The notes beneath the pieces are model-generated. The model was not told where the DNA came from, did no database searches, and saw only the letters and a program-made list of their open reading frames with translations. DNA of 64,000 nt. Origin: Owenia fusiformis. Its lineage: Eukaryota. The stretch is taken from the NCBI GenBank assembly GCA_903813345.2, contig CAIIXF020000001.1:17174001-17238000 (forward strand), given 5' to 3'. Below are positions 4,348 through 50,514 of the stretch, one piece after another (position 1 is the stretch's first letter; each line of letters starts with the position of its first letter). A program made the translations under genes and the position numbers.

Positions 4348-4921
4348 GTAAGTCTTAGCAATAACAAATGTTTGCCTCAATGGTAGTTTAAAAGACCTCA
4401 TATAAGCATACTGTTCATCATTTCCTCAAATTATGGGGAGAGAACACCAGATATGGCATATAAATACTTTGGAATTGAACAGTTCATGATTGTGCTATGA
4501 ACCCTTAGTGAATGCTATTTACAAAAACATTATGAGTCTGAATAAGCTAGACCCAGGCCAAATAAAAGATCAACATTGCATAATTGCCTGTATGTTTCTT
4601 ATAGAGCCTTTACTAGTGTTTGCTGTATGTTTAAAACACAATTTAGTGAAAAATAGCAAACCACAACTTCAGTTCCAGTGAGATGGTCAAGAGTTCAAAG
4701 AGTTCATAAAATCAAATGAACAAAGTTAGTCCAGCTATAAGTATAAACCACTGTGACCCCCTCCCACTACTTGACTACACACCTTCTCACACTTGTTGGG
4801 AGGTGTTTAGGTGGGAGGGGGGCTCACAAGGGCTTGTAGCTTTTGTAGTAAGACTAGAATAAAGTGTGGGCATGTGGGCATGTATTTATTTATTGAATCT
4901 TAATGTTGAATATGATTTCAG

Positions 4922-5071
4922 AATTCCAGTTTGAATGCTATACAGCAAGAGTGGTTCAAGGCCTCCAGTCACAAACTTTCGAACCCCTCCATGGTAGAGG
5001 ACTTTTTATCCTGTTTTAGCGAGTACTCAAAGTCCCTGCTAGATAAGGTGGTCAATATGGCTGATGCTAAC
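4922..5071 (+). CDS. KANK: KANK-like exon (QxEWF helical region before the ankyrin repeats)
   Basis: tttcag|AAT...GCT AAC|gtaagt, 150 nt; NSSLNAIQQEWFKASSHKLSNPSMVEDFLSCFSEYSKSLLDKVVNMADAN matches the KANK motif QHEWFRVSS...VINLADGN. Confidence 0.93.
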
Positions 5072-5280
5072 GTAAGTGTATTGATAGAAAGCATATAGAG
5101 GTAGATACGAGAAAGGTTTTGCATTTGTATAAGTAACCTGAATATTTGTTATGTTAGACCTACCAGATTACTGATATCTACATTTAATAGTTTTGTAAAC
5201 ACATTGAATGTAAATGATGAATTTTAGCTACAAGCCACAAAACATATGTACATGTACATGATTCTGCATTTACTTTGTAG

Positions 5281-5493
5281 GGGAACACAGCAATACACTA
5301 TGCAGTATCTCACTGCAATTTTGAGATCGTCACCTTGCTTTTGGACACAGGTTTGTGTAACGTGAATAAGCCAAACAAGGCAGGTTACACCGCAATCATG
5401 CTGGCCTCATTGGCTGTTATACAAACAGAGCTGCAGAAAACTGTTGTAAGGCATCTCTTTGAGGCTGGGGATGTCAATGCCAGGGCTTCACAG
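5281..5493 (+). CDS. KANK: KANK-like ankyrin-repeat exon
   Basis: ttgtag|GGG AAC...TCA CAG|gtgggt, 213 nt; GNTAIHYAVSHCNFEIVTLLLDTGLCNVNKPNKAGYTAIMLASLA...GDVNARASQ. Confidence 0.95.
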
Positions 5494-5818
5494 GTGGGTG
5501 GAAACATCTGTATTCTGTATACTACATTGAAAATAGTAGTTTAAACATGGATTATTGCGTATTTGAAACAACTACGCATTAGGTAAATCACATTTCAATG
5601 TATTGAAGACTGGTATACCTGTTATTAGTAAACATTAATGCTCTGATAATGATCATGTATATTTTTATCATACAGAATATTGAAAATGAATGAAGATCTA
5701 AAATAATGTGTTTTATTATGGTTCGTATACATTTTATGTAACTGAAATATTGATTGTATTGTCCACTTTACTGTACTTGCAATCCTTATAATATCCGACA
5801 TGTCTTCTGTGTATCTAG

Positions 5819-7720
<1,902 letters not shown>

Positions 7721-10700
7721 TAAGATCAACACTCTATTTCATTTTTCATTTTTAGTATTTTGACTTCTAATGTAAATATATATAGCTGTATACCTTGATT
7801 TGTATATTTTACCCTTTACCCTCTGCTCAATAAAAGTAAAAATTAATTGTCTCTGTGAACTAATCAAAAGTAATTTGTGTTATTAAAGGGTCTTGTTTAG
7901 GTAACATGCGAAATGCTGGGATATGTTGCTTATACATATGTGCTGGTGCATTTACGTTGATGGATTTTAATACAATATATTTGAGATGAAAAATTAAGAT
8001 AAAATTAAGTCTGTTTTCTGTGTATATTTCTCCTCATAAATATTCCACACTCTGTGCCGAAAACAAGATCCTTTAAAATTTTATTTGTAAGATAAGTATT
8101 TATTTTTATATGTAGCTTTAAGAATACTTTATTATTTTATTCATATACAGTTGATTAATTTATTAATAATTTTGCCAAAGATGAATTTTCACATTTTAGT
8201 TTCTGTGATTTTTAATTTGTCTCACAATTTAACATTACAATGCTCGAGTGTAAAGTATATTTTTGTAAGAAAATTGCAGTGGAGTAGAATCTGTAACTGT
8301 TATTGTTAAGTAAGATTATAAGCTAGATTATCAATGTAAAATCTGGATTACACCAGTCAAGCAGCAGAGTTTGTGTCAGGTCTGATAAAAGAAAGAACAA
8401 CAAAATGAATTGTTGATAATTTTTGATTTAACTGAAAAATGTAGAATGCTCCGAGCAAAAAAGCTTTAATTAGTGTTATAATTATGGCAGCATATAACTC
8501 AAATAATATCATAATTATATTCATGTATTGATTAAACTGATTAATTAATTAATTTGATATGGTATGTCAACTGATGTTGTATAGAAATTCAAACACTTAA
8601 CAGCATGCTTGCGTCCTTGTAGATCATACATGAGTGTGTAAATATGTTCATCAAATTTGGTACAAAAATTGTATTACTACTTGTTAATATAATTTTGTAT
8701 GCAAAACAAGGTGAAAAATTGAATTAGTGATTATATAGTTTAGTTTTGAAGTGACCTAAGAATGTTCTAATGTTTCACCTGTAATAAGTTGACTCAAAAT
8801 ACATGTGAAAAATTAAAACATTTGTTCTACATATCAACTCTTAAAGGCTTGTGGCACACATTTTCCAAAAAGTCAAAAGTTAGTTAAAATGCAGTATAGC
8901 TATTGTCTGTCTGTCTGTCTGTCTGTAAGCAATAATATATGTTTTATGTCATAACCAAAGATTATAGTGCTTAGTAATGTAGAAATCTATTCTATGTACT
9001 AACCATATTTTGAGCAATGCAAGTAGAAATTACGAATCATATCATCAACAAGGAGTGGAGACATGTCAATGTACTAGTAAGTTTTGCTTCGCATTTGTTT
9101 GCAGTGACCCTTGTGTACAGTTTTACTCTGAATTTAAAAACATTTTTTGAGATTATTTTGTGATTATTAAAAATGGCGTTCCATTTCTAGTTGTTTTTCT
9201 GATGTATGCTTTAGATTGGTACAATAAGTTTTGGATTGATTTTATTTTGATGGTACACCATTCTCATTGATAATTTTAAGATATTTGTGTGGAAATGAAC
9301 TTTAGCGTTATTGGTTAACTGAAGAACATGTGTACACGAAATTGGTTGCATTTGATGAAGTTTATTTTGAAATGTTTTGTGTGTTATTTCAATTTATAGG
9401 TAATTTATGTTACCCTTCTATGATTTATAAAGATACATGCCTTATAAATCAAACATATATTGGGTACTTAAAGCAGATGGTTTTCTGTGGTATGATGCTG
9501 CACCATCTTTTGAACATTAAAGGTGATATTTCTGCATTTCATGTTGGAAAAAGTTTCATTTTTGTAACTTGAATGCTGAAATTAGAGAAAAGTGTTACAA
9601 AAAACAAAAGTTAGATGTTGATATGGGGAAATTATGTTCACTTGGCACTTATTGGGCATAATTCCCAAACTTGGAACTTTAACTTGCCTTACTGTATCAC
9701 CCTGTATGCCACTCATGCTAAAGATTAGCAAAGTGACTAAGTGGTCATCTGCCCTGACTTATGGACACTCTGTACCTGTACCACCCTGTAATCTGTGTAC
9801 GCTGCTCTTGTGACATCCTGTATTTGGTGACATGCTGTAATCTGACCCTGTAAGTGTCCTTAGCCTGATTTATAGCTGCTGCTGCACATATGCTGAAGGT
9901 TACCTGGGAAAACACTTCCTCCATTGGTTAGGGTCTTCAGTGCAATAGTTCAAGTGCAGGGGTTCATGGGAAAATCCTCCATTGAAGGGAAGTGTTAAAA
10001 AGGAGGGCCCAGTAAATATGGTTACTGGAACATCCTGCTTGGCTTGCCTGGGAGCTAGGCATGTAATAGTATCTGAAATAAGCTATTTATATTTTCTTTG
10101 TTTAAATCTTTTGTACTATTCCCTTTTCTGTTATGGGTAAAGATATAGGAATAAACTGTTATAAAGTTTATATATTGGATATGTACAGATAGGCCTTTAT
10201 TATAGTTCTTTCACAATTATTGTATTTGTCATAATTGGACTCTGATCGATTTAGATGCTAAGAACTGGAGGTATTGTACATAAGGCATATCAAAGAGGCA
10301 TTTGGAAATAAAATCTTTAACAATAAGGTGTGCATGCAATTTAATTTTGTTTCATCGTTCATTTTTTTACATTAATTTTTCACAATGCTGTTGTTATCTG
10401 ATTTTCAAGACTGCTTGTTGATAAGATCTTCACAGTTTGCTTTGTAGTGTTGCTATATTTTGTTTTTGTTTTCACTTTTTTCTTCTCATCATGGATACCT
10501 GTCATGCCATTATTATAGATAAAGACTGCTGTAGCTCAGATTAAGCATTTTTTTGTATTCCACCATATAACTTGTTTTTCAGTGTTTAATAATTTAATAA
10601 TTCTCATGTTGCATTTGTTGATTTCATCAACAGGAAAGCTTAGAATTTCAATTCAGTTACAAGAAAGGGTGAAATTTCAAGTAATGTAATGTGATTGTAT

Positions 10701-10912
10701 GAACAATGTTATTGTATTTCTAACTACATGTATTGTATGTCCAGTGCGCAGTAAAAATGAAGGTTGGGTGATTGGCCCATATATTATTAATAAGTCATTG
10801 CTATCAGGGTCAATCATCAAATACTTCAGCCCTACCCTAGAATATATAATATGAATACCTTCAAACCTTAACGATTATTTCTTGAAACTGTGTAGACTGA
10901 CTGTTCCTTTTA

Positions 10913-11028
10913 TTATGTCATCACTTCTTTTTGTGGACAGTGTTTGGTGTTTGGCATTCGGGGGAATGGCAGTTGGTGTTTGGTGTCTGTAACAAATAGT
11001 AGGTGGTGACATTTTGCAAGTGAATGCC
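10913..11028 (+). mobile_element. Short copy of the ATGTCACCAC HINE family
   Basis: TTATGTCATCAC...TTTGGTGTTTGG...TGTAACAAAT...GGTGGTGACATTTTGCAAGTGAATGCC. Confidence 0.65.
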
Positions 11029-11099
11029 AATGTATATTTATGCTATATTTATGCTATGTGTCATTTTTTATAAATAAATATTTTGATATTTATCTGCAG

Positions 11100-11198
11100 G
11101 ATGGTAGCACAGCATTGTCAATAGCGATGGAGGCCAACCACAGAGATATTGGTGTTCTAATTTATGCACATGTCAACTATCGATCAAAAGGATCACCG
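11100..11198 (+). CDS. KANK: KANK-like exon encoding the last ankyrin repeat
   Basis: ctgcag|GAT GGT...TCA CCG|gtatgt, 99 nt; [33 protein letters not shown], resembling KANK1 [27 protein letters not shown]. Confidence 0.95.
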
Positions 11199-11902
11199 GT
11201 ATGTATCACCTACCAGTTCAAACATAATTGAAGTTGATAACGTTATAACAAATTGTGATGTTTCAATTGGTCGCATTGTTTGTTGATAGCAAAAATATAA
11301 GTTGAATTAAATCAATGCTAACCACCTACTACATTTTATAATAATCGATATATTTGTCGAGTGTCTGAATTTTTTGCCTGATTTAATCCGCTAATTTTAC
11401 AGGAGTCAAAGAAGAAACATAAGTAGTTAGTAAGATAGATTGTAAATCCCTTGTAGAGTCTCTCATGTTCAGTAAAGTGAATTCACATTGAACTTTGTTT
11501 TACAAACATGAACGTTTTATAAGGGAAGGAAGTTAAGTTGGCATGGATGTACATATCGGCTTTCACTGGGATACGGTCTCAGGTTTCATACATTTTGACA
11601 GTTTTCAAATTTAATTACAAATCATGCGCAAAATGTATTGTTGTCGGTATTAAAAGCTGTGGATAAAGAATGAGGGTGCAACTAATAGAGCTAAAAACAC
11701 TGATTTGCCAATTAGAGTGATTTTCTTGGAGTTAATGCATGGAAAATTGTGTAAATTTTAAAAGCATGGCCAAAAATTTGAGGTCTTATCTTGAAATCAG
11801 TTAAAATTGAAATGACAAATGAGCTTTTACTAATTCTCTATACTGGTATACTTTTGAAGAAACCTGTCTTCACTAATACAGGGTGTTCTGTATTTCTTTT
11901 AG

Positions 11903-12745
11903 CAAACTAGCTCCAGCTCTGTGAATCAACAACATGGTGAATCTGTTCAATTGAGCTCATTGAGTGAAAAACATGAAACATCTAGTGGCTCAAGCTCATT
12001 GGGTCAATCCGGTGGCTCAAGCTCATTTGGGCAATCTAGCGGCTCAAGCTCATTGGGTCAATCTGGAGGCTCAAGGTCATTTGGGCAATCTAGCGGCTCA
12101 AGCTCATTGGGTCAATCTGGAGGCTCAAGCTCATTTGGGCAATCTAGTGGCTCAAGCTTAATGAGTAAATCTAGTGGCTCAAGCTCATTGGGTCAGTCTA
12201 GTGGCTCAAGCTCATTTGGCCAATCAAGTGGCTCAAGCTCATTTGGCCAATCTAGCGGTGCAAGTTCATTTGGGCAATCAAGTGGCTCAGGCTCATTTGG
12301 TCAATCTAGTGGCTCAAGCTCAGTTGGTCGATTTAGCAGCTCATTGGGTTCATCCAGTGGCTCAAGCTCATTGAAATCTGGGTACAAATCATTGCTGAGT
12401 TCAAACCTAGGTTCAGGTTCTGGATATCAGTCAATGATGAGCTCAAGCTCAATGGGCCCAAGTTCACTGAATGAATCATCTATGGGTTCAAGCTCAATGA
12501 GTTCTGGCTACAGATCCTTATCCAGTTCAAGTTCAATGAGCCCTAGGTCAGTTAGAAGATCAAGTAAGGAACCAACCACAGGCTCAAGCTCATTTAGGTC
12601 TGCTTACAAGTCTATACTGAGCTCAAGCCCCATGGGAAGCTCCTCGGCGACCTCCAGTTCAATGAGCTCTAGCCCAATGAGCTCAAGGCGTTATACTTCA
12701 ATGAGCTCAACTTCGTCAGGTTCAACTCGTCATAAGCCTCAATAG
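11903..12745 (+). CDS. Putative alternative terminal exon of KANK: 280-aa Ser/Gly-rich region with 13 x 9-aa SSGSSS(F/L)GQ repeats
   Basis: Acceptor tatttcttttag|CAA is in phase 0 with exon 11100..11198 and in frame with ORF 11921..12745; AATAAA at 12812-12817. Confidence 0.7.
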   Translation, partial: QTSSSSVNQQHGESVQLSSLSEKHETSSGSSSLGQSGGSSSFGQSSGSSSLGQSGGSRSFGQSSGSSSLGQSGGSSSFGQSSGSSLMSKSSGSSSLGQSSGSSSFGQSSGSSSFGQSSGASSFGQSSGSGSFGQSSGSSSVGRFSSSLGSSSGSSSLKSGYKSLLSSNLGSGSGYQSMMSSSSMGPSSLNESSMGSSSMSSGYRSLSSSSSMSPRSVRRSSKEPTTGSSSFRSAYKSILSSSPMGSSSATSSSMSSSPMSSRRYTSMSSTSSGSTRHKPQ

Positions 12746-13302
12746 TGGGCCAACTTCAAGCAGTGGAGATATAATTTGGGTGACTGTTTATATCCAATCG
12801 CTTAAATGTTCAATAAAATATAACAAAACGCAATTTTTTCATTACTAACTTTGCTGTATGCGGGAGGTGGTTAGTCCTCAACAATGTAGGAGCATCATGC
12901 TATTAAAACATATCATATTTAATTTGAATAACATATTTCTATACATGTATATGTATTTATGTAAAGCAGAGAGCTTTGAAATGAATCAAGAATATACAGC
13001 AAGATGTCTTAACATTGTTGGCTTTTCAAATGCCTATAAATGCTGGAATACTTCAACGTGGAAACAAGAAAATTCATCTCAATCAGGAACTACTGTAATG
13101 TGATAAAGTTATACAACATCATATTGCTCTCAGAACTGAAATTTCTATCATCAGTTACTCAATAGGATAGTTTCTAAATAGCAGAAAAATCAATGAAATC
13201 TCGTGCTGCCATCTTTTATTCAGCTTTTAACTCTGGCTAGAGCTCCATTCACTTACATGCTAAAATCTTGGAAAAGTGGCTTAATTTCATGATTTATCAG
13301 AG

Positions 13303-14162
13303 CACCCTATGCAGACAGAGCCTGTGGGAAATATTGGGTGCGGAGCAAATGAGCGGAGGGTGCGGAGCTAACGGTCATTTTTGAATTTAAATTTGGGATA
13401 TTTCTGAAACTAAGCCGTTTTCGGACTTCAAATATACCAAGATATGTGTATTTGACACCAAATATCAATACAATTGTGAAAATAGTAGCGCAATTCATTC
13501 TATAGCAACGCAGTGTGCCTTAAAACTTTCCCAGACCTATATATTTTGAAATTATCCTGTTAATACTGAGTCCCCAGCATTCATAAAAAATGGTGTTCAA
13601 GGTACACTATCTATACAAATTATTTTTGCATCTTGGAACCCAGGCAGTATCTGTGTGATTTTATAAAAATTCGGAAATGTTCTTCAGATATGAGCCCCCT
13701 CTAAATATTGGGTGCGGAGCTACGTTTGTGGAGCTATAAACGTAGCTCCGCACCCAATATTTAGAGGGGGCTCATATCTGAAGAACATTTCCGAATTTTT
13801 ATAAAATCACACAGATATTGCCTGGCTTCCAAGATGCAAAAATAATTTGCATGGGTAGTGTATCTTGAACACCATTTTTTATGAATGCTGGGGACGCAGT
13901 ATTAAAAGGATAGTCTCAAAATATATAGGTCTGGGAAATATTTAAGGCATACTGCGTCGCTATAAAATGAATTGCACTACTATTTTCACAATTTTATTGA
14001 TATTTGGTGTCAAATACACATATCTTGGTATATTTGAAGTCCCAAAACGGCTTAGTTTCAGAAATATCCCAATTTTAAATTCAAAAATGACCGTTAGCTC
14101 CGCACCCTCCGCTCATTTGCGCCGCACCCAATATTTCCCACAGGCTCTGTCTGCATAGGGTG
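13303..14162. mobile_element. 860-bp foldback element with CAC...GTG ends and 5-bp TSD (Transib-like, non-autonomous)
   Basis: CAGAG|CACCCTATGCAGACAGAGCC...GGCTCTGTCTGCATAGGGTG|CAGAG; arms pair along almost the whole length, centre near 13735. Confidence 0.85.
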
Positions 14163-14869
14163 CAGAGTGTGTTTGTTGAATCTGTATAAAACTTGAATGA
14201 TATACCACATGATGACCCTGTTTATGAACATGTTGTGATTAAACATGCTAATGTTGATTGACATACAAATAATCCACGGTTTTAAAGAATTTTAGCATTG
14301 CATCTATGGACATTTGGCCCAACTTTTTTTAAATTGTCATAGAAAATTATTCAAATTACATAACTGTGTAAATCAAAGCTATTTTAGGAGAAAACATTCC
14401 ACTGAATTCAAATATACCATTTAAAAGAAGGTAATGTAAGTCATTAGAGGTCTAATATGCAAGTCTCTTAAAATCTCACGAAAAACGAGATTTAGCGAGA
14501 TTTCAAAAGCTATATGGAAACTATACTATTATGTGCATCTTTTTGCCCCATAAGTTCTTTCAGTAACTCATTTATATGCCCAAGTATCATGTATAACAGT
14601 TCCCTTGGTTCCTTATTTCTATGCCCTGTTTCCCCTCATGTCCCCTCATGCATATGCCTCATCAGCCATGTCATCCGTTGGTTCCTCTTTTATATGGCCT
14701 TTGTGTATTGTATGTTCCCAATATCCTTGACCCTCCTGTTTACTTCATCAATTCTCTCAGTTTAATTGTTCTCACTCTGTTTATTGTTCACTTGTGCTGC
14801 ACAGGACCCTGTCCTAGAAACTGAATTGTAGAGTGAGTATTTGAGAGTTCTATGTTGTGATCCAGGTTT

Positions 14870-15070
14870 AATTTTGTGACCACCCTTTCCATGGTTGATA
14901 TTATGACCACCCTTTTGATGGTAAATATTATAACCACCCTTATGATGATAAATATTATGACCACCCATTAACGATAAATATTGCAACAACCATTTTGATT
15001 GTCAAAATTAGGACCACCATTTTATGATGAATATTGTGACCAGCATTTTCAGTAATAAATGTTGTAACCA
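14870..15070. repeat. About 30-bp minisatellite
   Basis: Recurrent ATATTATGACCACCCTTT core. Confidence 0.75.
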
Positions 15071-15691
15071 GCTTAATCGTATTATAATTTTTTCATTTGG
15101 ATTGTATCATTTTTTGTTGGAATAATATTAGAGTGTCCTGAAATAGGGTCCTAAAAAGTTTGGTACCAGTACACTGTAATCTGCCTACCAACACTATTAA
15201 GTTCATCTGTCGTAGTTTCTTTTTTTGTTATGAATTATTTTTAGTTCTGTTTTAGATGCCATTCATTTTGTATTATTGTAGAATTGTGCTTGTACAGTAT
15301 ATGTTTTGCTGTCCGTTCTAAACAGAGGTGTTTGGAGACAAAAAACCCTTCACATTTGTTTTCACATTTTCACATTTATTTTCACATTTCATTTATTTTG
15401 CTTCAGTGTCACATGCTTGGATGAACGCACTGTGTAGATGATTAGATCCATCAAAAATACCATTTTTATTTGGAATGTTTTAGCTAGATTTGTTGTAATG
15501 TGATACCAAATTATTATATAGCATTACATGTAAATAGAAAGCTTGTATTGAAAATGTATTGATAACTAATAAAATGAATGATAGATGACTAGTATGCATT
15601 TTAAATAAATGAATTAATAACCATTTGGAATGTTATAATATGCATGTGGCCTGCATGGAACTTACGGTATGTGTTTGTCTTTTCACTTTAG

Positions 15692-15726
15692 GCCTTCAAA
15701 AGACGCAAGATGCCACCTTCTCCCAG
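15692..15726 (+). CDS. KANK: KANK-like penultimate mini-exon (short basic tail)
   Basis: ttttcactttag|GCC TTC AAA AGA CGC AAG ATG CCA CCT TCT CCC AG|gtatgc = AFKRRKMPPSP(S); phase 0 in, phase 2 out. Confidence 0.7.
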
Positions 15727-16620: not shown

Positions 16621-16636
16621 CCCAATTAGGAGGTAG
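16621..16636 (+). CDS. KANK: KANK-like final coding exon (short isoform)
   Basis: tctctttcag|C CCA ATT AGG AGG TAG completes ...PSPSPIRR*; phase fits the 15692..15726 exon. Confidence 0.65.
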
Positions 16637-20680: not shown

Positions 20681-23071
20681 TTGCTCATACCAAAAATGGA
20701 CCCCTGGATAACAAATACAGCAGCAGTAAGCATGTATTGTACATGTAGCATACACATTGTATATGTAAGCATACAAATATTGTATATGGAAGCATACATA
20801 TTGTACATGTCCATTCTCTAAATGTGAGCCTATAACATTCCAAGGTTGCCATATTGTAAATGTATACCTCAATATTGTACAAATTATACACAAAGAAAGA
20901 GTACATGTAAGGAAAATGTTTTACATGTTCTTGCTTTCTCAGATGTAGATACCTATACCGAATCTGAAAAACAAATATAATATCACTCAAAGGTATTTAA
21001 ATATCAGACTCGTGTGTTAAGCACACTGCATGCAATAAACTATAAACATAAACAAAATAAAATGGGTTTCAAATATTTTCCAAAAAGTATCTAGTAATTT
21101 CAAACAAATTAACTCACTTGGTTAAATCCAAAATGAGAAATAACATTTATAAATGTAAATAAAAAGAAAATCAATCATCAAATTGTCAAGTTTCATTTGA
21201 CGAAAATACTTAAAAATCAACGAAAAACTATTTTGATTACAAATGTAAAAATAATCTCAAGTGAAACTCGTAATTACCATATTTGGGCATCCTTTAAGTT
21301 GAAAGTCCCAGCCCTAAATGTCTCTAACTTAATTATTAAATCCATTTTTGTATCTTCCAGGGTGAATAAATATTTGGTGGGCATCCCTGAGAATTGACCA
21401 GTTAAATATTGTTGCACTGTGGGAACCATTAATAATAAGATGATACCAAGTAAAACAATATAATTTTACTGCATTTGACTATACAAGTAAACTACAAGTA
21501 GTAGTTATTTACAAAACTTATCACAGAGAGCAGTCTTGGCAGTTAAATAAGTTGAAATGATGTACAAAACATAAACATATATTTAGAAGGCTTATGAACT
21601 TGGCAATACCAGTGTCCTTCTCTTTTCTCAACTTTTAGGGGGAGGGGGGGGGGGGTAGAGTACAATGGATACAGCTGAGTTGAGAGTAATGGCTCAGTCA
21701 AATTTGATCTATGGCAACCATTTGGATTTGCAGCTGTAGCTTTCAAAAATCAAGAGAAATATGCAGCATAAAATATAGGGATAAGCAGTACGAAGTAGAT
21801 TTATTGAAGTACATGTAGATCTATAGAAGTAGATCTATATCAATTTTGTGAAGTTACAGCCGCCATATGCTGGCCGTAGAGCAAATGTGACAGAGGCTTA
21901 AGTTTTGAACAATATATACTAATACAGGTATATATTTTTCGCGCTCTTCTATTCATTAATGCCTATTTTCTAAAAAGTTCAAATGTGCCAACTTTATTTC
22001 AGGATAAATGGAATTTATAATATCCTGTTTTTTCCATTCTCATGAATTTGAATAATTTAAAACAGATTAATAACAAATTAATACACACGTTACTACATCA
22101 CACTTCTGCACTTTAAGAACCAACTGTGTAGTCTAATTTAGAGACACTACTCTTTGTCTTAGCTGTGCTTTCCCTATTACTGAAACAGAATGAAATCACC
22201 TGTTCTTTTATCAGATTCTATTTATAACTTGTTTTTATCTAAGATGAAGAAGATTTCATATAAAACTACACTACATGTTATACCATTTGCAAACTTAACA
22301 AAATAATATATAATATTTACTATTTAAATACTTTATATTCATTGAACATTGATTTCTTCATCACAGGTATTTTTGTTGCATGGCACAGTACTGCTTCTCA
22401 AATGTATCAAAACAAATAATCCACTTGAGTGCTTGTCATTTACAGTGTATAAAAACAAAAAGCAAATAATATCAAAGTGGTTAACAACTGCACATGACTC
22501 TAACATCTGTACAATACATGTATCCATACAAAATATAAAATATGATTTGAACATTGTATGGGTCTTACATATACGTTTTGCAACCAGTTGTCTGATATTT
22601 CATTGTTCATTGATGCTGATAGTTTAAACAGAATAGTGGCTATGTGGAACACCCTGACTTCACAGCTCAAACCATTTATAACACTTGTCTTATACAAATG
22701 TTTGGGTCATGTGGAAATATAAAACTAAAAAAATTATATCAACACTACAGAATGGTCCAATACTAATATCATGGTTTGTTCAGATGATATGTTTTCCCAT
22801 AATCAGTGGTCATTGTGTATTAAATCTAAAGCAGGTAACTAGTAGGGTTAGGAAAGCTTCATTTCTACTGGTTTATATATGATGTGTCAATCCCCATTGT
22901 AATTAGAACTAATTTGGACATGTAAATCATTTCACAGCAATACTATTTTAGCAGGGACACAGAAAGGCCAACTCTTCTTCTAAAATTTTCTAGTTTTCTA
23001 CCATCCTTCCAGTGACTATGAAGGCTATTTTCTCAGGCCTTAAATTGGGTTTGCCTTTATACTATGGTTTC

Positions 23072-23290
23072 CTACGCAAGGGTTCCTCCATATACATCAT
23101 TACTGTAGTCTCTCACTTCTCTCCGTCCTTCATCATTTGAGCTACTATTCAACTGCCTGTTGTGAAGATATTTCAACTGTTTCTTTGTAAGGTTCAGAGG
23201 GTTTGCCTGTTGGGTCTGATCCTCCTCTGCTGTAGGAGTGGTTGCGTCAGAGACGGGTCCCCTGCCATTTCCTGCAGTGCTATCAACAGC
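23072..23290 (-). CDS. SLCO5A1: SLCO/OATP terminal coding exon (cytosolic tail)
   Basis: tcttttccag|GCT GTT GAT...CTT GCG TAG, 73 codons, phase 0 as required; total spliced CDS is 2559 nt (about 852 aa). Confidence 0.75.
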   Translation of the reverse strand, partial: AVDSTAGNGRGPVSDATTPTAEEDQTQQANPLNLTKKQLKYLHNRQLNSSSNDEGRREVRDYSNDVYGGTLA

Positions 23291-23944
23291 CTGGAAAAGA
23301 TATATACTATGAGATTATATTGTATTTTATTTGTAGTATTGGTTCCCCTCTCCACCATCCATCCAAAATCAGAATGTGACCGAGTCTGTTATGGGAAGGG
23401 GGTAAAACAAGACTTATTATTAGAGGAGTTTCGCACAGTGTTTTTTGCTCAACACATTTACAATCTGCAGCACATTCACCAGATTTATGTGTACAGTAGT
23501 AGTTCAATTAAAACAAGATGCTATTGTGAATATATTTTAGCCCATTATAACTTGTATAAAACCTCTCTAATGTAATGTGTGATGTTATGTTATATATGTG
23601 TTATTGTCAAATTACCATATGTTTCTTTACTAATATGGAAATGAATGGCACTGTCGATAAATTATAGATAAAATGTGAATGATGATAATTAGGGCATGAT
23701 AACTCAATATTATATTAACTTGTCAAGATGTGCAAAATATGGATGAGATCAAAGGGGTTTACTAATTTGCCCTTGATTGTCTTTTTGTACCAAAACATAA
23801 ATAAAAACATAAATGAGCCTGTGTTAAAGATGAGATTTCAAGAGAACATTGAAAATGGTGAACATAGGTTGACTAGATACTATGGCAACACATACAATGA
23901 ATGTGCGTAGTTATATTTTGTGCAACAAAATCTTGGCAAAATCT

Positions 23945-25402
23945 ACAAGGCATTAACATGACAAAATGTCACCACCTCAAACAATTTGGTCAATTTAAAG
24001 CAAGTTGGAAAATACCTTTTGACCTTAAGAAGAACTTCTGAGAACATGTAGATGATTTTGAAAAAAAAATTAGTCAATTTGAAGCAAGTTGAAAAAAGAC
24101 CTTTTTGACCTTGAGAAGGTCATTGAAGGTCAAAGGTCAAATCTTAAGTCAGATATGAACTTCTGAGAACTTGTAAAGTCAAATTTGAACTTCTGAAAAG
24201 ATGTAGATGATTTTGAAAAAACAAATTTGGTCAATTTGAAGCAAGTTGAAAAAAGACCTTTTTGACCTTTTTTGACCTTGAGAAGGTCATTGAAGGTCAA
24301 ATGTCAAATCTAAAGTCAAATCTAAAGTCATATTTGAATTTCTGAGAACATGTAGATGATTTTGAAAAATTTTTTTAGTCAATTTGAAGCAAGTTGAAAA
24401 AAGACCTTTTTGACCTTTTTTGACCTTGAGAAGGTCATTGAAGGTCAAATGTCAAATCTAAAGTCAAATCTAAAGTCATATTTGAATTTCTGAGAACATG
24501 TAGATGATTTTGAAAATTTTTTTTAGTCAATTTGAAGCAAGATGAAAAAATACATTTTTGACCTTTTTTGACATTGAGAAGGTCATTGAAGGTCAAATGT
24601 CAAATCTAAAGTCAGATTTGAATTTCTGAGAACGTGTAGATGATTTTGAAAAAAAAATTTAGTCAATTTGAAGCAAGTTGAAAAAAGACCTTTTTGACCT
24701 TTTTTGACTTTGAGAAGGTCATTGAAGGTCAAATGTCAAATCTTAAGTCAAATCTTAAGTCAAATCTAAAGTCAGATTTGAATTTCTGAGAACACGTAGA
24801 TGATTTTGAAAATTTTTTTTAGTCAATTTGAAGCAAGTTGAAAACAGACCTTTTTTGACCTTGAGAAGGTCATTGAAGGTCAAATGTCAAATCTTGAGTC
24901 AAATCTTAAGTCAGATTTGAATTTCTGAGAACACGTAGATGATTTTGAAAAAAAAATTCAGTCAATTTGAAGCAAGTTGAAAACAGACCTTTTTGACCTT
25001 TTTTGACCTTGAGAAGGTCATTGAAGGTCAAATGTCAAATCTAAAGTCAGATTTGAAGGTCAAATGTCAAATCTAAAGTCAGATTTGAATTTCTGAGAAC
25101 ATGTAGATGATTTTGAAAAAAAATTTAGTCAATGTGAAGCAAGTTGAAAAAAGACCTTTTTGACCTTGAGAAGGTCATTGAAGGTCAAATGTCAAATCTA
25201 AAGTCAGATTTGAACTTCTGAGAACATGTAGATGATTTAGAAAAAAATTGAAGTCAGTCTAAACAGTATTTGTTAAGTTATAGGAAGTTGTAAGAAATTG
25301 TTACAGACGCCGGACGCCAACCTCCAACCGCCGGACGCCAACCGCCGTCGCAAAAAAAACGGAGACCATAACAATATGTCACCACTTTTGGTGGTGACAT
25401 AA
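23945..25402 (-). mobile_element. Helentron-type non-autonomous element (HINE/DINE-like) with a central satellite array
   Basis: On -: TT, ATGTCACCAC-caaaa-GTGGTGACAT stem-loop, GGCGTCC-type microrepeat, central tandem array, GTGGTGACAT subterminal repeat, then ...TAATGCCTTGT end. Confidence 0.8.
23985..25260. repeat. Satellite-like tandem array, about 9 units of roughly 130-170 bp
   Basis: Repeats of TAGTCAATTTGAAGCAAGTTGAAAAAAGACCTTTTTGACCTTGAGAAGGTCATTGAAGGTCAAATGTCAAATCTAAAGTCAGATTTG... Confidence 0.95.
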
Positions 25403-25473
25403 TAATAAGACATATGCGCAGCATATCCAATTGCCTCATGGGACAGGGTTGAGAATTATAACATGTTATTTAC

Positions 25474-25571
25474 CATAGCTCCGTCAGAGTTATTTTTAAG
25501 TTGTGTCTTCACAATGATCCAGACACTGAGGAAGAACATCATGGCAACAAACTTCAGGCCAGCTGTAACAC
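25474..25571 (-). CDS. SLCO5A1: SLCO/OATP exon, last transmembrane helix
   Basis: tttttatag|GT GTT ACA...GCT ATG|gtaaat; GVTAGLKFVAMMFFLSVWIIVKTQLKNNSDGAM. Confidence 0.88.
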
Positions 25572-25943
25572 CTATAAAAACAAAGCATAAACTGCACTAC
25601 CATGGCAACAAACTCCAAGCCACATGTTACACCTGCAATAATAAACCACATGTACACTACCATGGCAACAAACTTCAGGCCACTTGTAACACCTACAATA
25701 ATAAAGCACATACTGCACCAGCATGGCATTACAAACTCCAAGCCACATGTTACACCTGCAATAATAAACCACATGTACAATACCATGGCAACAATCTCCA
25801 AGCCACATGTTACACCTGCAATAATAAACCACAAGTAAAATACCATGGCAACAAAATTCAGACCACCTGTTACACATGCAATAATAAACCACATGCACCA
25901 TGGCAACAAAATTCAGACCACCTGTTACACCTGCAATAATAAA
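25540..25943. repeat. About 60-bp tandem repeat (7 units) derived from an SLCO intron/exon boundary
   Basis: Units CATGGCAACAAA(C)TCCAAGCCACATGTTACACCTGCAATAATAAA...; spacings 61, 60, 63, 60, 60, 55. Confidence 0.95.
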
Positions 25944-26183
25944 GTACCTAAGGCCACATCATATGGCTGTAAAAAATACATACTGTTACAGCAACAAACA
26001 TAATGCAAATACCTAATTTATAATGGATTTTCTATTGAATATATTGACAACCTTGGTAGTACGTATAATGACTGACTGCGAAGAATTTCTTGTATGAAGC
26101 AGTTCAACAAAATAGTGGGACAAAACTCTTTTAGAATAACAAAAAATTATTACTATTAAAGTAAAGTAAAGTTTTCGACATAC

Positions 26184-26312
26184 CTAAATATTTGTATCTA
26201 AAGTTGACAATGTCATACATCAGGCAGTTTCCATTAATGTTACACTGTTTACGCCATAGGAGGCATGTAGTGTCGATGACATTACCAAACATGATAGGAG
26301 CAGGAATGTAGC
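26184..26312 (-). CDS. SLCO5A1: SLCO/OATP exon (after the 19.5-kb intron)
   Basis: ttccag|GC TAC...TTA G|gtatgt; GYIPAPIMFGNVIDTTCLLWRKQCNINGNCLMYDIVNFRYKYL. Confidence 0.95.
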
Positions 26313-29300
26313 CTGGAAATACAAGACAATAAATGGTTACCAATTATGATAAAATTGTAGCCTGAATATACATGATGAGGACACATATTATGAGGACATA
26401 ACATACAGCATCCTCCTAAGCAGGTATCCAGAATCCATACCTCCTTCTTCCCCCTGCTATAACATGTATAACCAATTTAGAAGCGCCCGATTAAACTGAA
26501 TCATGTGATCTAATTATGCGCAATGACTTATACATGATTTCTGTTGCAGTGTTGCGATAGCCAATCAGATTGCGAGTTCTTAATCGGGGAAATGCTAACT
26601 GCTTATAGCAGGGTGTAAAAAGAAAGAAGATATTCTGGATTTTGAAGCCCTGTGATCGGAGGATGAACATAGAGAAATATGAACTTTTGCACCATAGCAT
26701 ATAATATGGCCACATAGCACAGTATTTTGTACAACAGTCAAAAGTAGTTGTAGAGAATGTCAATGGGTGTTCATTTGGGAAATTGAGTGGAGCAAATTTG
26801 AGACTTTCTGCAAGATATGATGCTATCTAATCATAAACTGCTGCTTCAAGAAATTCTCAGGTGATGGTGACCTGAGTTTCTCGCATTCAAAGTGAAATAT
26901 TGCATAACCAATTAGTTTTTGACATTTTACAATTTTTCATAGTAACTGTATTTATTAAACAGAGATACATAATATGTTAAACCTAATAAGTCCTTAGAGC
27001 TATTACAAAGCATCTTGTGTAGAACTAATTCTTTGAAATTTATCTATTTAATATCTACTTTATCTATTTATGATTAAAAAGAACTGGACAATATTTGATT
27101 GAAACATCCACTAATCTGCCTACAAGCATGCCTAGCTGTCTATGTTGTCATGCTTAAACAATTGAAGCCTCAGAGATGAGGTCACAACCCTAGAAACCAG
27201 ATATGTTTTGAAATCAATTTTTTATTAATCCATCTTCCCACTATTTTTCCACAGCTGAAGCATCAAACTGCTACCAACTAGGGCTCTTGACATTTTCATG
27301 TTGTACAAAGATTAGTGTGTTTATAATGAGGGAGAACTAGAAAATAGAAGCCTTTATTTTTCATATGCTTTATACAATAAAGAGAAAGAATGATAGCTTG
27401 TACAGATAATTCTAAAACTGTAAAAGTGAAGAATGAATATTATCTGTTGGACTTTAAGCATGTATATTTTATAAACTTAAATCCAATAAAAAGGCCATGT
27501 CAAATTATTAAATGTTTGCCTTTTTCCTACTATATGTAAAATCAACGTGGATATACCATTATTTACCTTCATTCAGATAGCCATAAATCATGAACCACAT
27601 TGCAGTACTTCGAACAAGCCTCATATATTATAAAGTATTGTTGAACTACAACATGATATCCATCATACTCATACATGCATGTATATGAATATTGATGATA
27701 ATATTGTTGTTTAATATAAATCATCTGATCTATCATGATTTCAAGGATTTCTCTCATTTCATCTATTTAACTAGATCACAATTATATATATAGCATTGTT
27801 CATGAGAAATAGTGTGTATATACTTAAAACATAGTTCATATGATTTACAGGGGTTTGTGTGGTGGTCTTTGTGCATTTTAATAATAATTTAGTAACTGAT
27901 ATAAAGTAGGCTTTAATCCAGCCTTTAATCGGACATGCTTTTCATAAATGTTATTTAATCAAAAGGCATATAGTTTCTGCTGTGTTCTACTTTTGATGAC
28001 CCTAGTAGTGTAATTGAGTTTTGTTGCTTGTGTAAATGAATTACCAGAAAGAAGGTCCAATCAATGCCATTTCAGCAACCACTCCCACTTAGATCCTAGT
28101 AATGTAATAAAAAGATGTATACTAGATTTGCATGTAAGCTGAATAATTGCAACCACTCCAAATTGACATACTTTGCTGTGTAACATTAATAATTGATGAC
28201 AAGTAATCAACTTACAGTTTTAATGAACTTACAAATTTAGAATCAATAATGGCAAATGGATATGATCACAACACTTAGTTAGCACCTATTTAATAAACAA
28301 CCACAAGAAAAATTGAAGACATCCGAAATGGCCAATCAAAATTCAAGATGGCTGCCAAAATATATTTCAGAAACACTGAAATGAAAAATTTGCTATATGA
28401 ACACAGAAATGTATTCATAAAAACACCTAGAAGGGACACGAGAATACACGATGATCGTAATAATGACCACATCATGACCATCCAACCAGCATAATATAAT
28501 ATCCTCCTACATAGTGACAAAAAACAACAAGAACCAGACTTCTACAAAACTTTCAAGGAGCTTGACAAGAAGGCTCAGACAATATTATTTTAGAATGTAT
28601 GATTATGAAGTGTCAGAGGTATATGTAGGGGTGTTATGATAGCTTGCATTTTATGAGAATGAGAAATGTATGTTTTGATACATTCTTGATACCCGCATCA
28701 ATAAAATAAAAAGATTAATTTCCCAGCATCAAACTGTATTCTGCAGATTCTACTCCTACTGACTCAGTGTTGAAGAGATGTTAATATTCTGAGAAATGCA
28801 ATCACGATTGTAAATTAGCATGATCAATGGCTTAAGCAAACAGTATTTCCCTAGACCCTACTGTTTCATCCTGAGAAAATTATATTCCAGTAGAGTTCAT
28901 TTTGGATTAATCAGTAACTGCTCTTGTGTAGGTGTAGTGCACTGGCAGAGGTTAGAAGAGAAGTGATTGGCACTGAAATCAATACATCTAAGCAGTATAT
29001 ACCTTTGACAGTGACTTCCTCAGGTACTCAATCAATTGTAATAAGAATCAAATCACCGACCAAAATTAGACTCAAAAATGTTCATCCATTATATACTGAA
29101 TATCAAAATCCAAACGAGAACAACATGTGTCTTTAATAAATTCTATAATAAGGATATGAAACTTGGTTTCGGTATTTTGAAATTTTGATTTAGGGCATTT
29201 GTGGAATAAACAAGTATACAATTACAATTAAAACTTATTGGGTCATTATATTTGAAGTAGAAATACTTTGCTATACAATGATGACATTTAGAAAATGTGA

Positions 29301-30379
29301 ATCAAATAGCAATGAATTCTGGTATGCCAATAAGTTAAGTGGTCTGAAACTTTATCACTTTATTATGCTCATTGTTGATTACCTTATGATAGATGATGTT
29401 GATAACAAATCTGCTTATATTACATATTGAGGCATAAAATGATATTGTATATTAAAGATCTCGTTTTTTACTTTGTAGCGAACAAATATCAGATATTCAA
29501 AAGGGCCTATGATAAATTTGTTTGCAAGGTGTCTGAAATCTTATTCTTAAAGTAACTTACAGGAATGGGAAAATTAACATGTTATACATTTTCTTTGTGA
29601 ACATTTCTTGTACTGTATATTTCATGTCAGTGCATGTATTAATAGTACTGTACTATTATGAGAATTGAAAACTGTAAAAAATCTAATGTGGCTTTGTACG
29701 ACAATGTCTGAGTGCTCATGATTGTTCACCACTGATTGCTGATTGTCTTTTAATGCTATAAACTGTCCATTTTAGAAGCTTTTAAAATGTAACATGATTC
29801 ATGTTAAATGGAACTGATTTGTATGAATCATACATAAAGAGGTACTGTGCTGTCGTCAATTGCTCAAAACAATGACTGCCATTCTGCAATAAGTACTGAT
29901 GCAAGTATGATTATGCTGTTGATCGAATGTTAAACCTTTTACCCATTTACCTATGGTTTGATAGAGTTTTTGCCACAAACAATTCTATAATACAATTCTA
30001 AGATAATCTGCGGGCTGTCGTATGATTCTTAGCTTTTTTCGTACAAAAACATTTTGTGGATTCCACTGGTTGTTTATTAAATTTTGTATTCCCCAGTGTC
30101 TCTCTCTATATTAGAGTTGTTTCAAACTCGCCGACTTCGACAACAGAGTCCCGACACCGACTTGGTTACTGTAAATCGATACTGTAATTATGCATTTTCA
30201 AAGTTTATTTTTGAGGTTAATATCTACCTAATTCAATTGGATTGTTTCAAGCTTCCGACTATGGAACACGAAATGATATTTGTTGACTATATAATCAGAG
30301 GGACATAATATTCTGTTATGTATTCACTGGGTTTTTATTATTAATATATAATAATAATGATCATACAAGTGTGGTAAAG

Positions 30380-31513
30380 CTAATCTGACGATTCTGAGGA
30401 GGAAATACTAATGCCAAGTCCTGTAATAATTTTGGGCATTTTTTTCAATAGAAATCTTTCTTGGGATTTTAAAACTCTTCTGTGGAGTTCAGTTAGTGTC
30501 TCTGTTTTCTTCTTCTTTTTCTTCTTTGTTGGAACTGCGAGTTCCTCATCATGACCACTCGACATATTATGTGCGATATTATCCCGGAAATCGTCCATCT
30601 GCTGATCGTCATCCTCATTAAAAATGGTGACGTTTTTGTCTTGAGTTGACGTACTTGCAGTTGCAGCTTGGGTCTGGGCTTTTGTAGACTTTGGGGTCGG
30701 GTTTTTTACAGGCTTTGGGGTTGGGGCTTCCACAGGATTGGGAGTCTTCGCTTTGGTAGGCTGGGGGCAGGGTTTTTCCGCAAACCTCATTTCCATTTTC
30801 TTAACATCATCAATAGCCAATCTGAAACACAAGTCGGATAAAATTTTTATAAATAAGCAAAATCAAACTGAAATTTGAAAGTCTAGTAAATAATAGTACT
30901 AAAAAGAATGAAAAAACCCTGAAATCTCTTACTGAATTTCTGTATCTTTGACAACTTCCTTTCCTGTAACCAACTTCCCAAGCTTTGTAGAAAGACGGGT
31001 CTGTAGCTGATCATAGCTTGTTTGTTTGTAGTAACTCGACGTGTCTTCTGTTAGAAGATGGAGATTGTCTTTGATGGTATCGACAATTTCTGTCCAACAA
31101 CATGGATGCACCAAGTAGCTTCTTAGTAAAAGTAAAACTTCTGGTTTCGAAAAGAAAACCTTTCGTTTTCTTTTTGTCAAGAGCGTAGGTTCTGAAACAG
31201 ATATAAATTCAGTAATAAGGCTGCTGTAAGGCGAACGCGTGCTTTGATTTGCACAGTGTCATGTTTATTCTTCACAGCTAACGTGCCATTCAAACCCTGT
31301 AAAATGTTAAGCCCCACAGAGTACGTAGTTTTTATAATATTGTGGGATATACATGTAGTTTCTGATTTCATTGAATAAATAAACGAAACAGTAAACACGT
31401 ACTGTTTTGAAATATTTAGAAAAAGCTGTACGATGCCTGTAAGTATATGAACGTACATATTTGTTTGCTAATTAGTCAAGTAACTTACCTTTGCTTACAG
31501 TTTTCGAAGCCAT
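30380..31513 (-). CDS. Three-exon gene (31489..31513, 30933..31191, 30380..30821), 241 aa, Myb/SANT-like N-terminus, poly-Lys NLS-like tract
   Basis: ATG GCT TCG...AAA G|gtaagt; tttcag|AA CCT...ATT CA|gtaaga; tttcag|A TTG GCT...; phases join with no stops; AATAAA about 40 nt after the stop (tttatt 30334-30339); KRKRKVFFSKPEVLLLLRSY...WTEIV resembles Myb/SANT helices 1-2. Confidence 0.75.
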
Positions 31514-31641
31514 GTTACTCGTGTACTATCGTAAGAAGGTTGTGACACACCAGTGCACAAGTCAAGTAAATATATGAACGCATACGCATAGACACGTGTC
31601 ACTGCCAAATACTCAGCGATGCACAAACTTGTCTCATGTTA

Positions 31642-31780
31642 TGCCTGGGTCACATAGGCTCCGATCCATCGGTGGCGCCCGGCGGATTGAGTGTTTTGTT
31701 CAATATTGTATTCAATTTTGAACAAAATACTCAACCGGCCGGGCGCCGTCGTGAAAATCAGAGCAAATGTGACCAAGGCA
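31642..31780. mobile_element. Harbinger/Tourist-like MITE, copy 2, nested in the 2-kb TIR element
   Basis: TTA|TGCCTGGGTCACAT...ATGTGACCAAGGCA|TTA, perfect 3-bp TTA TSD. Confidence 0.88.
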
Positions 31781-32914
31781 TTACTTGAAAAAATCGTAGT
31801 TATAGGACCGAATGAAGCGTATTGGCTCTGGGCTTAAACAATGCCGTTACTGTAAATCAATTGCAAATTAAATTAGACCTTATGTAAAACGTGTAGTCTA
31901 TCGTCTAATGATAAATGAAATAAACCTGAAAACCATTAAATGATGAATATTTGTCGAATATGCATTGGAATTTATCTAGAGATATTGCATGGTAAGTAAT
32001 CAGTTTATCCGCAAAAATAAACTTTGAAAATACATAATTACAGTATCGATTTACAGTAACCAAGTCGGTGTCGGGACTCTGTTGTCGAAGTCGGCGAGTT
32101 TGAAACAACTCTACTACTCAGGTTTCCTAACATGAAAACAAAAACTATTTCAAACATATCAGTTTCATTTTATTCATCATTCAAAATCAGTTTAGAAGCA
32201 TCTATAAATATAAGACCTGAATTACTATGTTTTGGAATACAAAAATAATTTCAAGAAATATAAATTACCCTATTTTGGTATAAACATTGAAGATGAGGTG
32301 TGGAAATCTTATGATTTGCAAAACAAAATAAGATCAATTAAGCTATTGATTTAGTTAAAATGATTACAAAACCATGACAACAGTTATTGTGACCTGAAAT
32401 AACATGAGCCAATTATTAAAACAACTAACTTCACCCTGTTGTGTCAAATCAATACAAAGATAGAAAATGAACACTTTGATTTATTTTACATTGATTGTCC
32501 ACACCTTTTGATTTCATTGTAGATGTTTCAGCTTAATAATTTCAGCACATACTATTGTATTGTATAAATAGCAATATGGAATTAACATAAACAAGACAGT
32601 TAACAAGTAAATTACAACAAATAGTCATTTAATTTGATTTACTAATGTTTGGAGATATGAATTGTGACATTAACAACTATTATTGGTGGTATTTAATGGT
32701 TGTAATACTGTGATAATACAATTACATGTAACTTTTGGTATTAAAAATAATCCCACAAGCTTGGAAATAAAATGTCTGTTTATTTTCATGGCGAAAAAAT
32801 GAAAATGTGTTTAACCTTACTATGCACTACAAAATCTGTGGCTCAAAAATAAACAGCAGCAAGAAACTAAATTTCTTCACAATGTTTTCAATTATCTCCC
32901 GTTGTTTTAAATGA

Positions 32915-33706
32915 TTACTTTTGAATAATAGCATGCTCATCTGTCATTTTCACTATTCCTTCTGGAGTAACAATAGATTCTTCTTTTTTCCTCTCAGGCT
33001 GCACAAACTTTTCATTCCCAGTTGCAGGTATAGCCATGTCCAAAGGACTTTTTGAAGGAAGATCATCCTTTAGGAGTCTAACCTTGAAAGATTCAGATCC
33101 TAGTTTCCGTTCCTCATCGCAGTAGTTATAAAGACAGCTGGGGAATATAAGGGCTATTGTAAGAGTCAACCCACCAATGCAGAATATGATGAGTCCAACA
33201 AGTTTACATATATCCAAATTGAAGTCGTATGTTATAGCATTTCTGTTGATGATTTCATTGCCTTGCTTGTCAATGTCAAGGATAACAGGCTGCTGTGGGA
33301 TGCTATACCCTACTATGATTCCTATGACACCAAACACCAGAAGATTAGCTCCAATCCAGACAAACACCTTCCACCATATAGGTGTACAACGTCGGCGACG
33401 AGGATTCGGATGAATCAGATATCGAAAATCATCCTCATCTTCATATATCGCAGGGTCCTTCACACCCTTTTCATAGAAATTATGTAAGTAAGATTTGACG
33501 CCAAAGTAATCAGGGCAGCTTGATCTCTCTTCACGTTTGGCTTCATGGGACTCTTTTGCAGTGGTGTCTGATTCAGAATACACTTCCCGTAATTTTTCCA
33601 AAGGTGGTTTAGAAGACTTTGCCTGAGATTTGGGATCAGCAGGATCTGAATCGCTGTCAGCTTGTTCACGTTCCTCTATTGCATCACCATCATCATTGTC
33701 AGCCAT
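32915..33706 (-). CDS. NRSN1: Neurensin-like two-transmembrane protein (263 aa), nested in an SLCO intron on the same strand
   Basis: YFGVKSYLHNFYE...IYEDEDDF...WWKVFVWIG...VGYSIP matches the neurensin motif YGVRSYLHQFYE...EDDF...FWKVG; two hydrophobic helices; acceptor ttgcag| at 33785. Confidence 0.88.
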   Translation of the reverse strand: MADNDDGDAIEEREQADSDSDPADPKSQAKSSKPPLEKLREVYSESDTTAKESHEAKREERSSCPDYFGVKSYLHNFYEKGVKDPAIYEDEDDFRYLIHPNPRRRRCTPIWWKVFVWIGANLLVFGVIGIIVGYSIPQQPVILDIDKQGNEIINRNAITYDFNLDICKLVGLIIFCIGGLTLTIALIFPSCLYNYCDEERKLGSESFKVRLLKDDLPSKSPLDMAIPATGNEKFVQPERKKEESIVTPEGIVKMTDEHAIIQK

Positions 33707-35371: not shown

Positions 35372-35750
35372 AGGCAGAATCAGATCGATAGGGGTGACAA
35401 AATTACAAGCACCATGTACAATTGACCTTCCAATCTATTCCTTACAATTAACAATCTCAAATACAATATCTCCCAAAAGATTCATGTTATGTTAAAATTG
35501 GTGAAGTTATAATGGATTCAAAGTGCAAAAATGCGTGAACATTTTTTTAATTCCCCCAAATAATAAGAATGGTTACCATTCTTATAGAAAAACAATAATA
35601 CATTATTGTAAAAATCTTTAGTTTTACTGAAATAAAATGTGCACTTTGGGGATTTTTAGAAAATAGACATGAAAAGGAATGACACCAGCCAGAAATATTC
35701 TAAAAATGAAACAATTTTTGTTAGGCTGCTTGTTAGATCTGATTCTCTCT
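35372..35750. mobile_element. Kolobok-like MITE
   Basis: TTAA|AGGCAGAATCAGATC...GATCTGATTCTCTCT|TTAA. Confidence 0.65.
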
Positions 35751-50492: not shown

Positions 50493-50514
50493 AAATATCT
50501 CTATTATCACTTAC

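Follow-up and report, generated by a model that had tools for sequence, protein, structure and literature searches.

The main mRNA of a KANK gene skips, in the RNA examined, a Ser/Gly-rich open reading frame of 280 codons (11903–12742, + strand, closed by a TAG stop at 12743–12745), which contains a 27-nt minisatellite and lies behind the last ankyrin-repeat exon of the gene. The Ser frame bears a signature of translated sequence that is real but modest. With somewhat less than even confidence, the repeat array and its degenerate flanks are read here as a young, lineage-specific, rare or tissue-specific alternative last exon of KANK, facultative or former; the frame would then presumably have been spliced in and translated at some time. 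Since its use is below detection in the RNA examined, such use must be confined to few transcripts, to particular tissues or stages, or to the recent past. The frame is not the normal tail of KANK and provides, at most, an alternative ending that is rare or tissue-specific.

The stretch of DNA analysed (64,000 nucleotides, referred to as the window) is AT-rich, with 33% G+C, and plainly eukaryotic, with spliced genes. The KANK exons delimited by RNA junctions are 4921–5070/5071, 5281–5493, 5819–6019, and 11100–11198, the one beginning at 4921 being the most upstream mapped. Pfam Ank is found on the frames 5281–5541 and 5819–7717, and exon 5819–6019 aligns with KANK1 structures end-to-end in one stretch (residues 1–67, 120 bits). 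The last ankyrin-repeat exon (11100–11198, + strand, 33 codons, phase 0 at both ends, donor CCG/gtatgt) has its best PDB matches in Kank1, KANK2, and KANK3; mouse Kank1 (5ybe_A) is aligned over residues 234–266 of 286 (E 3.5e-11), so that only 20 residues follow the equivalent point. It is this C-terminal ankyrin domain with KANK-specific sequence that identifies the host gene as KANK. The short basic Ser/Pro tail starts with a 35-nt exon (15692–15726, + strand, acceptor ctttag/G, donor CAG/gtatgc), while the end of the usual coding sequence (...PIRR, stop) is predicted, from the DNA and not from reads, at 16621–16636 on the + strand, behind an acceptor with 14 of 18 pyrimidines and in phase with the 35-nt exon. 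Together the two would give a basic Ser/Pro tail of ca. 16 residues ending in IRR, and the tail of one relative (locus L005), which likewise ends in IRR, resembles it. The host gene shares the ankyrin domain with KANK1 and KANK2 (PDB 5ybj, 5yay, 5ybe, 5ybv), and its usual tail, short, basic, and Ser/Pro-rich, is similar to those of the 20 cDNA-like relatives.

Four runs were used for RNA over 4800–13400: two assembled ones, X1 and X2, guessed to be RNA, none being recorded as such, and two stranded raw RNA runs, X13 and X14, chosen by species label. The table of joints is complete for this interval and includes joints seen in single contigs. It holds 5071 to 5281, 5493 to 5819, and 6019 to 11100, the last supported by 27 raw reads in X13, 34 in X14, and contigs in X1 and X2, as well as 9076 to 11100 in X2. 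No joint enters 11903 from any donor in 4800–13400 in any of the four runs, 11198 to 11903 included. Two X1 contigs and one X2 contig (114 nt unmatched) run off at 11198, and their continuation is found at 15693–15722, uniquely and with 0 mismatches; the support for the joint of 11198 to 15692 comes from X1 and X2 and was not among the loose ends displayed for the raw runs. As 11198 joins 15692 in RNA, the repeat frame lies inside the intron 11199–15691. The original prediction had the frame as the terminal exon of KANK and named a lack of splicing into 11903 as what would overturn it; for the four runs examined this claim is contradicted, since no 11198–11903 junction was found in any of them and 11198 joins 15692–15726 instead. 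A rough estimate puts the use of 11903 below ca. 10% of KANK transcripts per raw run (fewer than three reads vs. ca. 30 on the neighbouring junction). As regards the donor at 5071, it occurs in RNA beside a second form, a joint from 5070 with an intervening T, which is present in all four runs and is the sole form in X1 and X2; the second form probably reflects an allele at the last exon base and not a second donor.

The frame is preceded by an acceptor-like site (11882–11902, + strand) composed of a pyrimidine tract (14 of 18) and a TAG that doubles as the stop opening the frame. The site is equal to or better than the RNA-proven acceptors, which have 12–15 pyrimidines of 18, and only four other AG sites in 11220–15691, within the 4.5-kb intron, are as rich in pyrimidines. 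It is in phase 0, fitting the donors at 11198 and 6019. Downstream, an AATAAA (12812–12817, + strand) lies 67 nt after the stop of the frame, and an ATTAAA (12902–12907, + strand), possibly a second poly(A) signal, 157 nt after it; the end coordinate given in the original prediction, 12817, is the final base of the AATAAA. The acceptor, in-phase frame, stop, and poly(A) signal of an alternative 3'-terminal exon are thus all in place, and the junction reads are missing: the 11903 acceptor is used by no read or contig of the four runs.

RNA does cover the region, in an unspliced form. Contigs unspliced across 11198 are found in X1 (11187–11469) and X2 (11182–11645), at a depth of 28–33, and contigs unspliced across 11903 in X1 (11605–12009, depth 64) and X2 (11735–12009, depth 87). 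The X1/X2 word depth is 55–169 over the frame and 28–170 over 11199–12938 as a whole, in comparison with ca. 0–3 in the intron bins 9105–10826 and ca. 1500 in the spliced exons. Since the contigs crossing 11903 are similar in depth to the frame, the RNA covering the frame in X1/X2 is unspliced at that point. The coverage ends near the poly(A) signals: the X1 contig 12494–12938 ends 31 nt after the ATTAAA, and the X2 depth is 0 in the bin 12836–13122, past the AATAAA. Read-through of the 11198 donor (11199–11231, + strand) adds 10 codons before a TGA at 11229–11231, within an ORF spanning 11010–11231. The simplest reading of the X1/X2 RNA is a minor unspliced, intronically polyadenylated form, whose KANK reading ends 10 codons beyond 11198, leaving the repeat in the 3'UTR. 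In X13/X14 the depth over 11975–12835 is 0–2.8, vs. 0–2 in other intron bins and 9–27 in five KANK-exon bins of 4800–6234; the raw RNA over the frame is intron background, with every read on the same strand as KANK. A close paralogue elsewhere in the genome may have contributed some of the reads over the frame.

The array itself was delimited with Tandem Repeats Finder, which reports a single array at 11980–12372 (period 27, 14.8 copies, 79% matches, 3% indels, score 471), and its units were laid out in the frame starting at 11903. Thirteen clean 27-nt units follow one another in tandem (11981–12331, + strand) and encode S(S/G)GSSS(F/L)GQ, with the consensus TCT AGT GGC TCA AGC TCA TTT GGT CAA (SSGSSSFGQ), and FG is present in seven of them. 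In units 1–6 the order L, F, L, F, L, F is coupled to S/G at residue 2, giving a 54-nt higher-order unit. The array is followed by a degenerate S/M/Y/R tail of 137 codons (12332–12742, + strand), open and with motifs in phase 0. The tail contains a 45-nt module in three diverged copies (at 12359, 12485, and 12581; pattern GSSS-x-x-S-(G/A)-Y-(K/R)-S-x-x-S-S), all of which retain Tyr as well as one basic and one hydrophobic residue in constant positions. The product of the whole frame has 131 S, 42 G, 17 Q, 9 F, 5 Y, 11 M, and no Asp among its 280 residues (47% Ser, 15% Gly) and is net-basic; its first in-frame ATG does not occur before codon 87. The alternative AQAHW frame is interrupted twice in the array, by neighbouring stops of a single variant unit, and 12 times in the tail; for the third forward frame the counts are nine and eight, respectively. 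Over the whole of 11903–12742 the alternative forward frames contain 17 and 21 stops, and many stops close each of the three reverse frames. The description of the sequence in the original prediction (unit number, length, and coding, seven FG, the initial L/F alternation, the S/M/Y/R-rich tail, and the broken AQAHW frame) was correct in every particular checked.

The frame has the form expected of a coding minisatellite, with a unit length that is a multiple of 3 and the reading open through the array and its flanks. In dinucleotide shuffles of the whole 840 nt, none of 5000 was open in any of the three + frames. 11903–12742 ranks third by length among the stop-to-stop frames of the 64-kb window, and the remaining three of at least 200 codons match known families (KANK ankyrin, OATP, and Neurensin) and are all real exons. 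The G+C content of 11903–12745 is 0.467, vs. 0.317 and 0.34 in the flanking intron; RNA-proven exons have 0.43–0.54 and introns 0.31–0.34, which makes the Ser/Gly frame exon-like.

Tabulation by codon position, proposed with the original prediction, revealed a third-position bias. The 13 units hold 20 distinct variants, distributed 7, 2, and 11 over codon positions 1, 2, and 3 (P = 0.016 for at least 11 at position 3, P = 0.0065 for at most two at position 2; 50,000 random draws in which transitions and transversions kept their numbers). In the Ser frame eight of the variants are synonymous, 12 non-synonymous, and none creates a stop, as compared with 3/12/2 and 2/16/1 (synonymous/non-synonymous/stop) for the same variants in the alternative frames. 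The proposal that the unit variation favours the Ser frame was therefore borne out by codon position (P = 0.016) and not by the synonymous excess alone, which is not significant (P = 0.09). The lack of stops in the array (P = 0.28) is uninformative; the 27-nt period alone keeps any frame open. The tail repeats the pattern and carries more weight than the array, its modules having 16 variable columns distributed 3, 4, and 9 over the codon positions (P = 0.019) and a pN/pS of 0.35 in the Ser frame vs. 2.40 and 0.79 in the others. When its dinucleotides were shuffled, the 137-codon tail kept the Ser frame open in 0.18% of cases, and at least one of the three frames in 0.64%. All the recurring motifs outside the array are in phase 0, and the six register shifts against the 27-nt lattice, read by eye from motif positions (-6, -9, +12, +3, +15, and +12), are all multiples of 3. 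These coding tests are small and partly interdependent, and several statistics were examined. Among the 16 of 1370 contig pieces listed, those over the frame and its 3' flank show six differences in 1039 nt and no gaps, vs. 34 differences in 2307 nt and 20 gap letters in six intronic pieces; the lower divergence over the frame weakly favours the coding reading.

Relatives of the frame were sought in several ways. Word-indexed protein searches returned low-complexity matches only, one of them nucleoporin-like and one unnamed, while an exhaustive search gave 149 matches at E ≤ 0.001 and none at E ≤ 1e-30, with the best stretches nearly all in the array part and only two extending beyond query residue 185. 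Twelve matches scanned for domains carried Tudor, lectin, molybdopterin, zinc-finger, peptidase, collagen, or nucleoporin-FG domains, or none, and Ank was absent from all 12. A Pfam scan of the 280-codon frame found no family at E ≤ 1, the ESM Atlas gave no usable match, and in a metagenome scan with the tail 595 stretches matched the pattern and none was confirmed. KANK loci of other animals were collected with the 67-residue exon as a query, the 33-residue exon being too short; a word-indexed search with the former gave 4286 matches at E ≤ 1e-10 to multi-ankyrin proteins, and none of the 120 listed could be recognised as KANK. By tblastn, none of the 80 loci collected matches the frame. The last ankyrin exon is present in 54 of them, and a downstream Ser-rich frame of at least 60 residues in three of these 54, each of 63–71 residues; the 20 cDNA-like loci end 12–71 residues past the last repeat, with short basic Ser/Pro tails. 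As the 80 loci are only 61–78% identical in the most conserved exon, the absence of the frame from them says little about a young exon. Judged by these comparisons, the frame is lineage-specific, and the 80 loci do not show it to be unused. In the portions available of the literature on KANK phase separation, ankyrin repeats, and alternative last exons, no Ser/Gly tail of KANK was found.

The frame differs from KANK relatives in that a long Ser/Gly/FG repeat tail occurs in none of the 80 loci and none of the 12 scanned database matches. Like the SxFG nucleoporins, it is rich in Ser between FG dipeptides that recur at intervals of 9 or 18 residues, and the only database match of nearly its length is a 'Nucleoporin-like protein 2' (E 2e-10); Nucleoporin_FG2 is carried by one of the 12 scanned matches. 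However, the frame has only seven FG, no Pfam Nucleoporin_FG match at E ≤ 1, and no pore-anchoring domain, and its adjoining exons code for KANK ankyrin repeats. The nucleoporin likeness is compositional, given that the other scanned matches are Tudor, lectin, molybdopterin, and zinc-finger proteins. The lack of any Pfam family on the frame at E ≤ 1 and the KANK ankyrin neighbours speak against membership in the FG-nucleoporins. The proteins of the hornerin/filaggrin-2 type have tandem Ser/Gly coding repeats with scattered aromatics and an N-terminal S100 EF-hand ahead of the repeats. The frame shares with them the tandem Ser/Gly-rich coding repeats and scattered aromatic residues but has no S100/EF-hand, no family match, and no start of its own, and nothing indicates common descent; the absence of a Pfam family on the frame and the upstream ankyrin exons speak against membership in the S100-fused type. 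Both comparisons are compositional analogies only, and the condensate-forming or heavily modifiable tail put forward in the original prediction is conjectural. Alternative terminal exons combined with intronic polyadenylation are an established general mechanism, and the frame shares with it an acceptor, an ORF, a stop, and poly(A) signals in the intron before the usual last exons, with low-level RNA ends nearby; it differs in that the defining junction is not seen and the RNA is present unspliced at the acceptor.

In the reading preferred here, that of a rare or former alternative last exon, the Ser-frame stretch would have been shaped by protein-coding constraint within the intron 11199–15691, which separates the last ankyrin exon from the 35-nt exon. 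The layout (strong phase-0 acceptor at 11903, 280 codons, stop at 12743, signals at 12812 and 12902) would then be that of a facultative alternative 3'-terminal exon. Splicing of 11198 to 11903, if used, would keep the ankyrin domain intact, and the basic tail of ca. 16 residues would be swapped for a predicted 280-residue net-basic disordered tail with seven FG. A regular terminal exon spliced in this way, the form in which the original prediction had it, fits the phase-0 acceptor of good quality and the stop followed by AATAAA but is very improbable: RNA joins 11198 to 15692, the tail made up of 15692 and 16621 resembles the short basic Ser/Pro tails of the 20 cDNA-like relatives, and mouse Kank1 (5ybe) extends only 20 residues further. 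A sizeable minority share of the probability goes to a non-coding intronic minisatellite, transcribed only within a retained intron or in the 3'UTR of a minor isoform polyadenylated inside the intron. Its openness would be explained by the 27-nt unit together with decayed flanks descended from that stop-free unit, and an isoform ignoring the 11198 donor would stop at 11229–11231 and be cleaved after the 12812 and 12902 signals. The contigs unspliced over 11198 and 11903, at 28–170 vs. ca. 0–3 in the bins 9105–10826 and ending near the poly(A) signals, agree with this, as do the lack of junction reads and homologues (0 of 80 loci) and the P values of 0.09 for the synonymous excess and 0.28 for the absence of stops. 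For neutral DNA, however, the two position-3 biases (P = 0.016 and P = 0.019), the open tail (P = 0.002), the register shifts that are all multiples of 3, the pN/pS of 0.35 in the Ser frame only, and the exon-like G+C would be unexpected, even allowing for the small size and partial interdependence of the tests.

It is rather unlikely that the frame is coding sequence but not a current KANK tail, that is, a relic exon that recently went out of use or a part of another sense-strand transcript (a nested gene with a start of its own or an unseen upstream exon). This would reconcile the coding signatures with the absence of the KANK junction, and the X1/X2 depth, climbing from 28–33 to 64–87 (11605–12009) and then to 55–169, could reflect an extra source of RNA from ca. 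11470–11735. The climb is also explicable by 3' bias or by a word depth inflated by the repeat, and the raw reads there are all on the KANK strand; moreover, no ATG in frame precedes codon 87, and no start-codon exon with a phase-compatible donor was seen by eye in 11199–11902.

A further open frame extends from exon 5819–6019, which remains open past its donor for 566 more codons, to 7717 (+ strand). This extension is acidic (138 D+E), with a G+C content of 0.376. An X1 contig (6002–6354) is unspliced across the 6019 donor, and the X1/X2 depth is 35–90 to ca. 9100. The indels listed within the acidic frame (at 6245 and 6353) are both of 3 nt, vs. 7, 1, 1, 1, 1, and 2 nt beyond its stop, and the frame is open for at least 100 codons at the same point in only three of the 80 related KANK loci. 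The acidic extension is a second candidate for a lineage-specific alternative KANK C-terminus. That KANK gained switchable C-termini from newborn low-complexity coding sequence in its last introns, the Ser/Gly tail (11903–12742) and the acidic extension to 7717, is possible but less likely than not. Either alternative end would replace the conserved short basic tail, and the acidic one would replace the last ankyrin repeat as well; if real, such switchable ends could alter the self-association of KANK, a cortical adaptor.

If the Ser/Gly frame is included in a transcript anywhere, it would plainly exemplify a minisatellite that arose as coding sequence from the start, and a conserved cytoskeletal adaptor would have gained a long disordered tail. 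Should it never be spliced in, it calls for caution, as an in-phase acceptor, 280 codons, a stop, and a poly(A) signal made no exon in the RNA examined, and gene models built on sequence only would mis-annotate the C-terminus of KANK here.

Several other elements of the KANK introns are worth mentioning. A short element at 13160–13303, with a word depth of 22,000–37,000 in its bin and many reads breaking at both edges, looks like a high-copy repeat expressed from many loci. Just upstream of exon 11100, the sequence 10974–11018 (bin depth 7,700–11,400, loose ends on both sides, and a joint that 'goes back 12') is probably a dispersed repeat. Two inverted 70-residue frames with nearly the same translation, 13310–13519 (- strand) and 13946–14155 (+ strand), one of which was tested and has no Pfam match, may represent the two arms of a transposable element lying within the KANK intron. 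Another 27-nt tandem repeat, unrelated to the Ser/Gly array (14870–14966, 3.6 copies, 84% matches), lies in a 79-residue Gly/His/Lys-rich frame on the minus strand. Elsewhere in the window, a frame of the Neurensin/TMEM74 family is located at 32918–33748 on the minus strand (E 5.6e-25), and exons of an OATP-family transporter, including a Kazal domain, occupy 48303–56068 on the same strand (E 5e-50, 6.7e-29, 2.3e-17, and 9.9e-11).
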